This document shows, piece by piece, positions 10,088-20,213 of a stretch of DNA of 64,000 nt. Location: contig JAHQWG010000016.1 in NCBI GenBank assembly GCA_029856045.1, positions 288,001 through 352,000 of the forward strand, read 5' to 3'. The stretch comes from Promethearchaeia archaeon. Lineage in GTDB: Archaea; Asgardarchaeota; Lokiarchaeia; Sigyniarchaeales; SOKP01. A program made the position numbers and the translations under genes. The first letter of the stretch is position 1. The number at the start of each line of letters is the position of its first letter. A model generated the notes under the pieces. The model saw only the letters and a program-made list of their open reading frames with translations. It was not told the origin of the DNA and searched no databases.

Positions 10088-10825
10088 ATAATTCATAGTT
10101 TCTATTTAATCCATCAACTTACGGGAATCTGCATGATTTATAGGAAATATGGAGCAATTGAATTAAATCAAGATCTAGTTTCGGGGTTTCTAACTGCTCT
10201 AAAAGATTTCGCAAGCGAGATAAGTAAAGGTAAGGGGCAACTCAAGATTGTAGACATGCGACTCTTCAACCTAATCCTTGTTTTTAAAGCAGGAGTCTTA
10301 GTGGTGGTTGCAGCTGATAAAAATGATTCTAGAGAAATCGCTCAAGCGAGACTTGAAGAAATAGTAGATGTTTTTATGGAAAAATATTCTGAATACATAG
10401 GTGAAGATAATTGGACAGGAGATATTCGTATATTTAAAGGATTTGAAACAATTATTGATAAAATTCTCGAAGTTGGAAAGGCAAGTGAAGTCCCAATTAG
10501 AATTCCCATTTTAAAAATATATAAGAAAGATTATGAAAAATCTCAAAAAAAGATAGCCAAAAAAGGGTTAATTCTTCAAGAAGTAGATTTTAGATCAACT
10601 ATTGAAGGAACTTACAAACCTGAATGGACCTCAAAGAGATTACCTAAACAAGTTGTGAGTCAAGGAATGCTTTCAGAACAAGAATATGAAATTTCCCATC
10701 TATGCGACGGATTTCATACTTTAGAAAAAATTGCAGAAGAAGCGGGTATTCCAGAAAACGATATAGGGTTAATTATTGATGAATTAGATGAGCTTGGATT
10801 GCTAGAATTTATAATAATTCAGTAA
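10088..10825 (+). CDS. Longin domain + C-terminal winged-helix protein (NPRL2-like); start probably ATA at 10088
   Basis: IHSFYLIHQLTGICMIYRKYG and DLVSGFLTALKDF longin pattern; C-terminal CDGFHTLEKIAEEAGI..LDELGLLEF wHTH; AGGTG SD just before the ATA. Confidence 0.75.
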   Translation: MIHSFYLIHQLTGICMIYRKYGAIELNQDLVSGFLTALKDFASEISKGKGQLKIVDMRLFNLILVFKAGVLVVVAADKNDSREIAQARLEEIVDVFMEKYSEYIGEDNWTGDIRIFKGFETIIDKILEVGKASEVPIRIPILKIYKKDYEKSQKKIAKKGLILQEVDFRSTIEGTYKPEWTSKRLPKQVVSQGMLSEQEYEISHLCDGFHTLEKIAEEAGIPENDIGLIIDELDELGLLEFIIIQ

Positions 10826-14539: not shown

Positions 14540-14692
14540 ATGCCACAACTTGATGATGAGTTAAAGAAAGCTATTAAAGAGGGTAAAACATTAAGCCCTG
14601 TCGACCAAACAGAAGTAGACAGGATAAAAGCCGAACGCGAAAAAAGAAAGCAAGAACTGGAAAAAGTCAAAGAGTCTTTAGAAAAGAAATAA
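14540..14692 (+). CDS. Small 50-aa protein with an N-terminal WH2/actobindin-like motif (not in the ORF track)
   Basis: MPQLDDELKKAIKEGKTLSPVDQTEVDRIKAEREKRKQELEKVKESLEKK*; purine-rich AGGGATAAGGA before the ATG, TATATAAA at ~14509, T-rich tract after the stop. Confidence 0.75.
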   Translation: MPQLDDELKKAIKEGKTLSPVDQTEVDRIKAEREKRKQELEKVKESLEKK

Positions 14693-16997: not shown

Positions 16998-17618
16998 ATG
17001 ACGATATTGACACCCGAGGATGAGATAGATTTAGCAAAATTTGAAGTGGAACTCGTAAAGAATTGGAATAAAATGATTGGCTCTCAAAAGAGTGTTACAG
17101 CAGCTCATATGAGATTATCTAACCTTATTATCAAAGAAAATTCTGCACGAGAAATTTTTTTAAGAACTGCTAGAGATGTGTATAAACAAATGAAAGTACT
17201 AGCAAGAGAAAAAATGTCTAATATCGATGAGGATGATGAGAAAATAATTCAAAAAATAATTCATGATAATGAACAAATATTTGAAAATAATAAAAAATTT
17301 CTTAACGCTATAAAAGATCTAGGATTACAAAGAGAATATTTACATAAAGAATTTCAAGAATTAACTGAAGCATTAAAGGAGGTATCTTCAAAAAGAAAAG
17401 CGGTTGTTAATAAAGCTTTAAAAATCGAAATATCTAAGAATAAATTAATTGAAGGAGAGAAACTTGAAATGATGGATCAAGAATTTAAAGATATACAAAA
17501 GGAGTTTGACAGATCTAAAGGACGTTTTTTGAAAAAAGTTGAACATATCGAATCAACGAGGAATGAAGTTAATTCTTTATGGAATAAACTAAAAGATTCT
17601 ATTATGGGATTTGACTGA
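16998..17618 (+). CDS. All-helical coiled-coil protein, BAR-domain-like
   Basis: 206 aa with three long amphipathic helices and almost no Pro; strong SD (AAGGGGA). Confidence 0.6.
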   Translation: MTILTPEDEIDLAKFEVELVKNWNKMIGSQKSVTAAHMRLSNLIIKENSAREIFLRTARDVYKQMKVLAREKMSNIDEDDEKIIQKIIHDNEQIFENNKKFLNAIKDLGLQREYLHKEFQELTEALKEVSSKRKAVVNKALKIEISKNKLIEGEKLEMMDQEFKDIQKEFDRSKGRFLKKVEHIESTRNEVNSLWNKLKDSIMGFD

Positions 17619-17741
17619 ATTAAAAAAAAAATATCTAAATTTAAAATATTAGTATAGAATAATTGAAAAATAAAAAGGTAAATAATTAAAAATAAATATT
17701 TAATCGATTATAATTAAATAGAAAAATTTTTTTCTTAGGGG

Positions 17742-18158
17742 ATGATAAAAATAGCCGAAGAATTTAATTCAATGTTAGCTGCAACCCGGAAAGCACCACT
17801 TGATGAGAAACTCAAAGGACTTGCAGATATTATTGAAAGTATAATGCAAATTTTGTTAAAAATTCCTAATTTAGTAGATCAAAGCTTAACTGTTATAAAT
17901 TCAAGAATCTCTTCAATTGAAGGAAAGGTCACTTCATTGGAAACAAAAGTTGGTCAAGGAGCTACGGCTGTATCGGCAGAAGCTGGAAGTCTGGCTCGAT
18001 CCCCAGTAACTCCACCACCTCCGCCAGGAACACCTCCACCACCTCCGGGACGCCCACCTGCTGGACCTCAACCAGCGAGAGCAGCTAATCCAGTCTCTCT
18101 ACGCGGAGCAATCATGGGGGAATTGAAGGAGTTATTTTCAAAAAGAAAAAAAATATAA
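17742..18158 (+). CDS. Coiled-coil + polyproline + C-terminal amphipathic/basic (WH2/FAB-like) protein; the start may be ATA at 17751
   Basis: INSRISSIEGKVTSLETKV heptads; TPPPPPGTPPPPPGRPP; SLRGAIMGELKELFSKRKK. Confidence 0.8.
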   Translation: MIKIAEEFNSMLAATRKAPLDEKLKGLADIIESIMQILLKIPNLVDQSLTVINSRISSIEGKVTSLETKVGQGATAVSAEAGSLARSPVTPPPPPGTPPPPPGRPPAGPQPARAANPVSLRGAIMGELKELFSKRKKI

Positions 18159-18446: not shown

Positions 18447-20213
18447 ATGACTGGAAATACAAAATCAGTAAAGGTAATACATGATTCTCAGAGGAAAGTT
18501 CTAGAAATAGTATCATTATTACGAGTGATGAATAATTACTATGGAAAAAAGAAGGATATTCAAAAGAAAATGAAACCAATTGTTTTAAAAAGATTTAAAA
18601 AGAGTATAAAAGAATTAAAAGAAAATTCAGATTGGTTATTTTCTGTTCCGAGCACATTAGACTCTTTAAATATAGAATTTATGAAAAAAAATGATGCTTT
18701 TCGATTTCCCGATGCAATCCATTTGTTTGAGGCATGGATGAATCTTGGGATGGATGCTGTTTTTCCAAGAGTTGCATTTAACTTTGATTTTCCAGGGGTA
18801 TTACCAAATGAAAGAAAAAGGTCTGTATTTCAGTTTATTTACAATTTTTCTCGTGGTTTTGGTTTTCCAATCATTTTTAATCCCACATTTTATGAACATA
18901 ATATAGGTTTATTGAGATTTCTTAATCCATTATTAAAATGGGGTTATACTGTTTTTCACAAAGTAAATCAAGCAAATTCTCTTGTTGAAAAACGTTTCAA
19001 TTTAAATAGACATCATCCTGGAGAATTTGAATCTGTGATGATTTCAGAATTTAAAGATGGATTTAAAGGAGTTGACACACTTTTACATGGATATAAAATA
19101 AAAAAACCAAAATTAATCGGAAATTATGATGATTTAAATCAAGCCTTAGAAAATGTTGTATTTTCTTATTCAATAGGAGATCATGCAATGAGTATTATAA
19201 AATATAGAGGACAAGAAGTTAAAGAAATCCCACTTATTGATAATGATTTTATTAAAAAAAAATATGATATTGATTTTTACCCTTATATCAAAAAATTAAT
19301 CTCAACTAATAACGCTATTACTCAAAGAATTAAAGAATTAAGAAAGGAAATCACAGAAAAATTAAAGGAATTTTCACTTATTGATAAAATAAGATTTAGA
19401 TTAAGGAAAGGTAAAGTTATTCCTTTATCTAAAGACGTGCAAAAAGTTAAAGATATTGAGTTAAAAAAAAATATCTTAGATAAAATTAGACAAAAATTAT
19501 GGACTACTCCATTATATACTCATACAGTTCATTCACCTAAACAATATAAGCTCAGTTACACTCAGGAGGAAAATGATTTAGATGAATTAGAACAAGAAGA
19601 ATCTGATTCAATCTTGTTAAAATTAGTAAGAAAATATGGAAAAAAATATAAAATCGAGTTCAATGAAGAAAATATCATTAAAAAGCTTGAGGAATTAAGA
19701 GATGACATGGCAAAGATGTGGCTATATTTTAAAGAAAGACATCTTAATTATGCAAAAAGAAAAATGATAAAAATTACTTCAATTTCCGTTAATGATTCTA
19801 ATTATAGAGAAAAAATTTTAAAATTAGTAGATGAATTAATACCAATTATAACAATTCATGAGATTTTTATACGACCTTTATCAGATTCTGTTTATCCCGA
19901 ATCCATTCCACAAACTCAAAAAATGTGGTCTTATCTCGCAACATTCTTAAGTTCTAAGTATAATTTAATGGGTGTTAACTTAATAAAAACCTTCAATCGA
20001 ATAGCATATTATAGATGGGCTTATTTTTTCAAAAAGAAAAATATGAAATTTGAACATTTTTTTGATTATTTCGTAAAAATACCAATTTGGGAAAATATCC
20101 CAGATGAAATTATGAATTGTTTTAAATCTTATCCAAATGAAAAGATTATCTTCGTTAAAAGCCCAAAACAATCAATAAGAAATAGAGTTTCTAAATTAAA
20201 AGAAAAATTTTAA
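18447..20213 (+). CDS. Hypothetical protein (588 aa), no recognisable family
   Basis: Long ORF with typical composition; mixed alpha/beta N-terminal half and helical C-terminal half. Confidence 0.8.
   Translation: MTGNTKSVKVIHDSQRKVLEIVSLLRVMNNYYGKKKDIQKKMKPIVLKRFKKSIKELKENSDWLFSVPSTLDSLNIEFMKKNDAFRFPDAIHLFEAWMNLGMDAVFPRVAFNFDFPGVLPNERKRSVFQFIYNFSRGFGFPIIFNPTFYEHNIGLLRFLNPLLKWGYTVFHKVNQANSLVEKRFNLNRHHPGEFESVMISEFKDGFKGVDTLLHGYKIKKPKLIGNYDDLNQALENVVFSYSIGDHAMSIIKYRGQEVKEIPLIDNDFIKKKYDIDFYPYIKKLISTNNAITQRIKELRKEITEKLKEFSLIDKIRFRLRKGKVIPLSKDVQKVKDIELKKNILDKIRQKLWTTPLYTHTVHSPKQYKLSYTQEENDLDELEQEESDSILLKLVRKYGKKYKIEFNEENIIKKLEELRDDMAKMWLYFKERHLNYAKRKMIKITSISVNDSNYREKILKLVDELIPIITIHEIFIRPLSDSVYPESIPQTQKMWSYLATFLSSKYNLMGVNLIKTFNRIAYYRWAYFFKKKNMKFEHFFDYFVKIPIWENIPDEIMNCFKSYPNEKIIFVKSPKQSIRNRVSKLKEKF

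Follow-up and report, generated by a model that had tools for sequence, protein, structure and literature searches.

Closest described systems

The closest described counterparts of the protein considered here are the classical BAR proteins (arfaptin, PDB 1i49 and 4dcn; FAM92A/CIBAR1, 9uhd; SNX1/SNX5; APPL; ACAP). A 206-residue protein encoded in a 64,000-nucleotide stretch of Asgard archaeal DNA (the whole stretch that was analysed, referred to below as the window) shares with them a size of ~200 residues and an architecture of three long helices. It matches them over its whole length (Z 12-13.4, rmsd ~4), and has in common with them a predicted antiparallel dimer formed through helices 1 and 3 and a basic distal arm. 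It differs from them in sequence (identity ≤10%, no Pfam match), in being archaeal and near-neutral in charge, and in having no PH, PX or SH3 domain and no H0 helix; its likeness to BAR proteins is one of predicted structure.

The yeast eisosome proteins Pil1 and Lsp1 are very abundant BAR scaffolds (PMC3257569). The 206-residue protein resembles them (3plt, 8qb7-9) in being a very abundant, stand-alone BAR core, and in structure (Z 11.5-11.9, rmsd 3.0-3.7, 166 residues aligned). On the other hand, no sequence link connects the two, the likeness of role is an analogy only, and lattices, furrows and dependence on PI(4,5)P2 are features of the yeast proteins.

I-BAR/IMD proteins (IRSp53, MIM, IBARa) acting with Ena/VASP or WAVE provide a further comparison, in that they share the superfamily fold with the 206-residue protein (Z 10-11) and in that its 138-residue neighbour has a VASP/WAVE-like order of coiled coil, polyproline and basic helix. 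However, I-BARs score lower than classical BARs by ~2 Z units, and the 206-residue orthologue is not enriched in an actin co-immunoprecipitation (Co-IP).

Asgard BAR proteins are already on record. One type is Vps5-BAR, which Thorarchaeia frequently carry as a fusion with Vps28 (PMC10307638); a Lokiactin Co-IP also picked up two other BAR proteins, though short of significance (PMC13716822). The known BARs of L. ossiferum are Bar1 (UYP45610) and Bar2 (UYP47554, a tandem FAM92-like protein); its 206-residue orthologue is neither of them, as its accession (UYP46261) makes clear. Known Asgard BARs (FAM92-like, Bar1, Vps5-BAR-Vps28) belong to the same lineage and probably share the superfamily fold of the 206-residue protein, but they are different genes. 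The Pfam FAM92-like family occurs in 45 of 400 genomes, as against 141 of 400 for the 206-residue family, and profile-profile comparison (hhalign) of the latter with the Asgard FAM92-like family gives a non-significant probability of 1-2%. In the host genome nothing exceeds the cut-off for PF06730, PF03114 or PF09325 (the PF06730 control matched nowhere); absence of the FAM92-like family from that genome is judged from a family-specific profile, which likewise gives no match there. With the first half of Bar2 as query, no homologue within the length range came up. The Bar2-type BAR of L. ossiferum and Ca. Harpocratesius is a tandem double-BAR of ~450 residues (L073:811-2166; L072:1477-2853), and the host-family members of the Bar2/FAM92-like group are single domains of 211-240 residues.

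The locus and its distribution

The features of the locus are collected in the Table. Homologues assign the host to the Lokiarchaeia (Promethearchaeota). The 206-residue protein and the 138-residue polyproline protein are encoded co-directionally with a gap of 123 bp, as originally described, and the ORF of the WH2-like peptide ends 2,305 bp before the first of these genes (~2.3 kb, also as described), with Pelota and one radical SAM gene in between.

Table. Coordinates (window numbering) of the features discussed
Feature	Position	Strand	Remarks
50-residue WH2-like microprotein	14540..14692	+	adjoins the region of the gene pair in the host family only
206-residue protein ORF	16998..17618	+	probable BAR-superfamily three-helix protein, predicted antiparallel homodimer
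helix 1, residues 6-69	17013..17204	+	AlphaFold2; main predicted dimer interface, antiparallel to its own copy
helix 2, residues 78-148	17229..17441	+	AlphaFold2; contains the basic segment, residues 130-142 (nt 17385-17423)
helix 2-helix 3 tip, residues 145-155	17430..17462	+	cluster of conserved basic residues away from the dimer interface; putative site of lipid contact
helix 3, residues 153-201	17454..17600	+	AlphaFold2; residues 188-206 (conserved W195) join the predicted dimer core
TATA-like box	17712..17720	+	22-30 nt before the polyproline gene; spacer 89% A+T
138-residue polyproline protein	17742..18158	+	coiled coil resembling trimeric coils, then a polyproline arm and a conserved helix at the C-terminus
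amphipathic basic C-terminal helix, R-x-A-I-x-x-E-L-K-x-L-F-x-K-R	18093..18152	+	conserved across the class

All three ORFs are real conserved genes rather than chance ORFs: in the class set of 161 genomes, matches are found to the 206-residue gene in 134 (one copy per genome), to the polyproline gene in 147 and to the 50-residue gene in 143. A deeper profile finds the 206-residue family in 141 of 400 genomes of the phylum, covering all four families of the host order; it finds none in the 7 genomes of families f5-f7 and, elsewhere outside the order, two weak partial matches only. (Some genomes are incomplete and profile sensitivity is limited, so that absences from the counts for the 206-residue and polyproline genes are unproven.) The family is confined to one order of Lokiarchaeia, and is near-universal and single-copy there. 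Named orthologues include UYP46261.1 of L. ossiferum and QEE14721.1 of P. syntrophicum.

A few genomes depart from this pattern. Three clear copies of the gene are present in G008 and two in G010. A 221-residue helical protein of the host genome (G000:C27:480134-480799, minus strand) matches the BAR-like profile weakly (E 8e-5), and is possibly a paralogue or coiled-coil noise. In P0046 a 344-residue protein carries the BAR-like domain at residues 140-343, after an N-terminal region with a Cys-x-x-Cys motif, and may be a fusion form or an assembly artefact.

Fold of the 206-residue protein

The three long helices of the original description are confirmed by AlphaFold2, run with a 57-sequence alignment (mean pLDDT 93.9). 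The L. ossiferum orthologue, 32% identical to the window protein without gaps, gives the same three-helix model (pLDDT 93.6), the two models having alignment rows in common. In a structure search of 48,161 chains, the first six rows for the window model are all members of the BAR superfamily: arfaptin (Z 13.4, rmsd 4.4, 186 residues aligned), Lsp1 (11.5), ACAP4 (11.4), SNX1-SNX5 (11.1), and MIM and APPL1 (11.0 each). The search with the model of the L. ossiferum orthologue likewise opens with five BAR rows, which include arfaptin (Z 13.0, rmsd 4.1, 186 aligned). A Z of ~13 is borderline, in that helical bundles can attain it through common arrangement alone. When Foldseek candidates are re-aligned, 24 BAR rows precede the first non-BAR row. 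The case for a BAR fold is thus made by rank order and full-length coverage, and by no single score.

Sequence comparison is silent on this point. Pfam yields nothing for the window protein in the BAR-clan families (BAR, FAM92, Vps5, Arfaptin, IMD, FCH), the best being FCH at E 0.0019 in 5 of 57 homologues, and a PDB sequence search gives no significant match. Foldseek has no match at E ≤ 0.001 (best E 5e-3), and no BAR is among the matches listed in an Atlas shape search with the model, an absence that carries no weight. Language-model features suggest the FAM92, BAR, BIN3 and arfaptin families, at 0.82-0.86 (a lead only).

The absence of a sequence link to BAR and the borderline Z and Foldseek E values would also suit a convergent, generic helical-bundle dimer (a chaperone, nucleoid or storage protein) or a PspA/ESCRT-III-like polymer, as would the RNA/translation housekeeping genes in the neighbourhood and the 'Smc' label that UniProt automatically attaches to orthologues (UYP46261 is labelled hypothetical or 'Smc'). 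However, BARs outrank all else over 180-195 of the 206 residues, whereas non-BAR bundles at Z 11 (SipB, a designed bundle) cover fewer (135), Smc coils align to residues 2-155 only, and Vipp1, at rank 46 of the 48,161-chain search (Z 9.2), aligns to residues 1-151 only. The protein has no ATPase or hinge domain, and the 'Smc' label is a mislabelling. CdvB has a Foldseek E of 0.1, and a single homologue of 57 matches PspA at E 0.008; PspA/Vipp1/ESCRT-III identity is disfavoured. The closed antiparallel dimer model described below also has the interface pattern of a BAR, and a generic bundle or polymer is improbable on this evidence. Prefoldin-beta, considered because the L. ossiferum gene follows Pcc1, is ruled out by the wrong length and the lack of a beta hairpin.

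Within the superfamily, re-aligned classical BARs (arfaptin 13.4, FAM92A 13.0) score above I-BAR chains (Z 10.0-11.1) in what is a comparison of monomers only; the modelled protein appears more classical than protrusion-type. Both AlphaFold2 models have five residues before helix 1, leaving no room for an N-BAR-type amphipathic H0 helix, and the protein has no PH or PX domain and no SH3 or other polyproline-binding module.

Predicted homodimer and distribution of charge

Prediction of a homodimer of the 206-residue protein scores 0.84 (best control 0.01; pLDDT 88), with at least 97% of contacts agreeing across three runs. (In calibration, 20 of 30 solved homo-pairs reached the mark for a dimer, as did 1 of 23 single chains; a passing score may reflect likeness to already solved BAR dimers.) The predicted contacts run between antiparallel copies of helix 1 (22-54, 33-43, 15-61), and also take in the beginning of helix 2 and, from helix 3, residues 188-206. 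[quoted passage not shown] A BAR-type fold and dimer are, on these models, probable. The original BAR-like call has thus fared well as regards the fold (three helices, an antiparallel homodimer model, BARs first in the fold searches with PspA and ESCRT-III lower).

The basic segment noted originally is located at residues 130-142. Within it R133 alone is strongly conserved (K/R in 96% of 57 homologues and in 85% of a diverse 34). A more conserved basic cluster adjoins the segment, at positions 145, 147 and 149 of the helix 2-helix 3 tip. These four positions lie mostly outside the predicted interface, and further conserved basic residues lie in helix 1. Over residues 130-156 the net charge averages +3.2 to +3.9, and the protein as a whole is about neutral (net charge +1; homologues -6 to +6).

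Abundance and Lokiactin Co-IP in L. ossiferum

Published proteome and Lokiactin Co-IP tables (bioRxiv 10.1101/2025.11.30.690169) allow the orthologues to be followed in L. ossiferum, which belongs to a different family from the window organism. UYP46261 is GNAMCCOK_02568, as established from the offset between accessions and from its exact monoisotopic mass (23.90 kDa; the masses used in the same way are 29.26 kDa for its neighbour, 51.36 for Bar2 and 24.01 for Elf1). It ranks 46th among 3,061 expressed proteins, at a mean of 22.0; the corresponding values are 21.7 for Lokiactin (rank 59), 19.1 for Bar1 and 18.5 for Bar2. In this species the 206-residue orthologue matches actin in abundance. 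It is also far more abundant than the two BARs named by the published study, exceeding Bar1 8-fold and Bar2 11-fold if the table values are log2 (the sheet does not give the unit). The gene comes after a proteasome/exosome/L37ae/Pcc1 cluster, and its high expression may therefore partly reflect position.

In the Lokiactin Co-IP, GNAMCCOK_02568 has a ratio of 0.71 (p 0.014, adjusted p 0.053), the authors' cut-off being 1 and Elf1 reaching 1.36. The polyproline orthologue is GNAMCCOK_02219, assigned by its position after Elf1. It is expressed at 18.5, ~11-fold below GNAMCCOK_02568 if the values are log2, and is not found among the Co-IP rows listed, which extend down to a ratio of -1.06. Membrane-associated proteins are under-represented in this Co-IP according to its authors (bioRxiv 10.1101/2025.11.30.690169). 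Elsewhere in the same data, GNAMCCOK_04250 (20.61 kDa), which falls outside the preprint's identifier table, is a strong Lokiactin Co-IP match (ratio 5.11, 92% coverage).

The polyproline neighbour

The polyproline family is wider than the 206-residue family: it includes f5-f7, and a look-alike cluster is dominated by Thorarchaeota. Pfam and PDB sequence searches with the 138-residue protein find no VASP, WAVE or WH2 match, only generic coiled coils (BRICK1 at E 0.8), and detect no EVH1 or WHD domain and no WH2 or GAB/FAB motif. Its C-terminal helix, searched against PDB sequences, finds one designed peptide only; we take this helix to resemble the F-actin-binding (FAB) helix of VASP. Both coil and helix match, in two segments (E 1.6e-6 and 4.6e-6), the tail of a 409-residue small-GTPase-type protein of the host genome (G000:C35:19491-20720, minus strand), which is likewise composed of coiled coil, linker and basic helix. 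The 138-residue protein is thus this tail in stand-alone form, a putative portable tether, and hetero-oligomers of the two proteins through the coil are conceivable. A Lokiactin-Co-IP-enriched Arf bearing this tail was also considered; the profile finds two places in L. ossiferum, neither of them an Arf.

Many orthologues begin at the position of an ATA codon (17751), so that the true start of the 138-residue protein may lie three codons downstream of its ATG (17742-17753). In one variant of the family a zinc ribbon replaces the proline arm and helix (L060:1931-2464, minus strand), and two f5/f6 genomes have tandem duplicated copies (L063:7483-8326; L065:82-973).

Gene linkage

All 42 distinct host-family loci that were inspected have the polyproline gene immediately after the 206-residue gene, in the same orientation. 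However, conservation there extends alike to an entire 15-kb block, which runs from cutA through Pelota to Elf1; in the long loci radical SAM lies within 410 bp in 12 of 13 and Elf1 within 3 kb in 13 of 13. Of 15 loci from three other families, 6 have the polyproline gene within 831 bp of the 206-residue gene, the arrangements being of three kinds, and 12 have archease, which is a tRNA-ligase cofactor, within ~2 kb. Some 200-390 kb separate the pair in three closed genomes, those of L. ossiferum, P. syntrophicum and Ca. Harpocratesius repetitus; in L. ossiferum the polyproline gene follows Elf1. Since the block is equally syntenic, archease linkage outdoes that of the polyproline gene and the pair is broken in closed genomes, the neighbourhood can be considered old but no tighter than background. 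Linkage of the two genes, whose absence elsewhere was named originally as counting against the proposal, fails in these three genomes, two of which are those of cultured species.

These data bear directly on the protrusion module that was originally proposed, in which a BAR-like dimer recruits the polyproline protein (as a miniature VASP/WAVE analogue) and the WH2-like peptide, and so couples curvature to Lokiactin. Adjacency throughout the host family and proximity in 6 of 15 other loci would fit such a module, and so would the precedent of eukaryotic BARs that recruit actin regulators, the two other BARs seen below significance in Lokiactin Co-IP (PMC13716822), and the slightly positive ratio of the 206-residue orthologue in an assay in which membrane-associated proteins are under-represented. 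Yet that ratio is below both the authors' cut-off and the value for Elf1, and the less abundant polyproline orthologue is not among the positively enriched Co-IP rows listed. Housekeeping genes are linked as tightly as the polyproline gene or more so, f5-f7 genomes carry that gene in 7 of 7 with a detectable BAR-like gene in 0 of 7, and the WH2-like gene is unlinked beyond the host family. Classical BARs outscore I-BARs, and Loki profilins have been reported not to bind VASP polyproline (PMC8410842). A BAR-polyproline-WH2 module is, all told, distinctly unlikely, and what has been removed is an unsupported operon story.

The TATA-like box ahead of the polyproline gene weakly suggests, from sequence, that this gene may have its own promoter. 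A scan of the locus for sigma-70 promoters and terminators finds less than expected by chance, with models unsuited to archaea. Two further genes of the neighbourhood can be mentioned. Positions 10133-10825 encode a 230-residue longin-like and winged-helix protein (weak Longin match, E 0.0014), homologues of which lie within 1.6 kb of the BAR-like gene in f2, f4 and one f3 genus and adjoin archease. Positions 18447-20213 encode a 588-residue protein without Pfam match; its gene is conserved immediately downstream of the polyproline gene in the majority of host-family loci and is missing in some (L038, L040, L045).

Proposed role of the 206-residue protein

The reading that best accommodates the whole of this material, and that we hold to be somewhat more probable than its competitors combined, is that of an abundant, stand-alone, BAR-type membrane scaffold. 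The 206-residue protein would belong to the BAR superfamily as a divergent form, separate from the FAM92-like BARs of Asgard archaea. It is predicted to form an elongated antiparallel dimer with a six-helix core, held together by helix 1 and the final part of helix 3. Conserved basic residues of its distal helix 2-helix 3 arms may bind anionic lipid headgroups; given a BAR fold, binding to membrane would be likely. By analogy with Pil1 and Lsp1, the protein would most probably line the cell membrane on its inner side, serving as a bulk scaffold for sensing or stabilising curvature, a role favoured because the abundance of the L. ossiferum orthologue is close to that of actin. It would not be a dedicated adaptor bringing the polyproline protein to actin, and adjacency of the two genes would represent an old, loose neighbourhood rather than a conserved functional unit.

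A BAR shape can also serve in binding proteins. The 206-residue protein might be a scaffold of this kind, for example an effector of an Arf- or Rag-like small GTPase in the manner of arfaptin, with membrane shaping secondary or absent. Its closest structures are arfaptins, the chains including complexes with ARL1 and Rac. The adjoining polyproline protein has homology to the C-terminal tail of a small-GTPase-type protein encoded in the same genome; of the 15 loci outside the host family, 6 have a longin/winged-helix gene no more than 1.6 kb away; and the 206-residue protein is close to neutral overall. Identity to arfaptin is just 10%, however, which does not imply equivalence of binding surfaces, no GTPase gene consistently adjoins the 206-residue gene, and abundance on the scale of actin suits a structural role better than signalling. 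An effector scaffold is, for these reasons, rather unlikely.

The membrane scaffold can be taken further, in a version that is speculative and that we consider unlikely. The 206-residue family would then be the main membrane-shaping scaffold of Promethearchaeum/Lokiarchaeum-type cells, forming lattices by which protrusions, branch points or constrictions are shaped or stabilised, with the polyproline protein and the GTPase that has the same tail as a low-copy tether to actin. If true, this would be the first functional archaeal BAR coat: a literature search turned up no archaeal BAR protein that had been studied biochemically (structure-based Asgard catalogues may mention the 206-residue family). 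To the question of how Asgard archaea shape membranes and form dynamic protrusions, this family, invisible to Pfam, mislabelled 'Smc' and present in the order that holds the cultured Lokis, brings a small soluble target (UYP46261.1, QEE14721.1).

The WH2-like repeat family

The 50-residue gene is conserved in the host order and is unlinked to the gene pair outside the host family. Its product has no Pfam WH2 match; the best PDB match is to an N-WASP WH2 construct, with an E of 4.8e-4 when three repeats are taken together; native N-WASP reaches E 0.18. Family f3 has proteins of 488-494 residues made up of about eleven copies of the 50-residue unit. The 488-residue repeat protein of L. ossiferum (L107:2364-3827, minus strand, at ~4.726 Mb; also L109 and L110) is GNAMCCOK_04085, by exact mass (56.41 kDa) and position. 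In the Lokiactin Co-IP it is among the strongest matches, with a log2 ratio of 4.53 (adjusted p 0.002, 44 peptides), the value for Lokiactin itself being 4.44. Because this tandem-repeat relative is enriched with Lokiactin, evidence for actin attaches to the WH2-like family, and not to the pair of 206-residue and polyproline proteins; it is the part of the original proposal with actual actin evidence. The 488-residue repeat protein is a candidate tandem-WH2 nucleator or sequestering protein. Term searches of the preprint's main text (bioRxiv 10.1101/2025.11.30.690169) find WH2 in connection with gelsolins only. WH2-like units related to the 50-residue peptide (E ~1e-6) are also present in two further proteins of the host, at G000:C23:33223-34281 and C15:167392-168153 (both minus strand).
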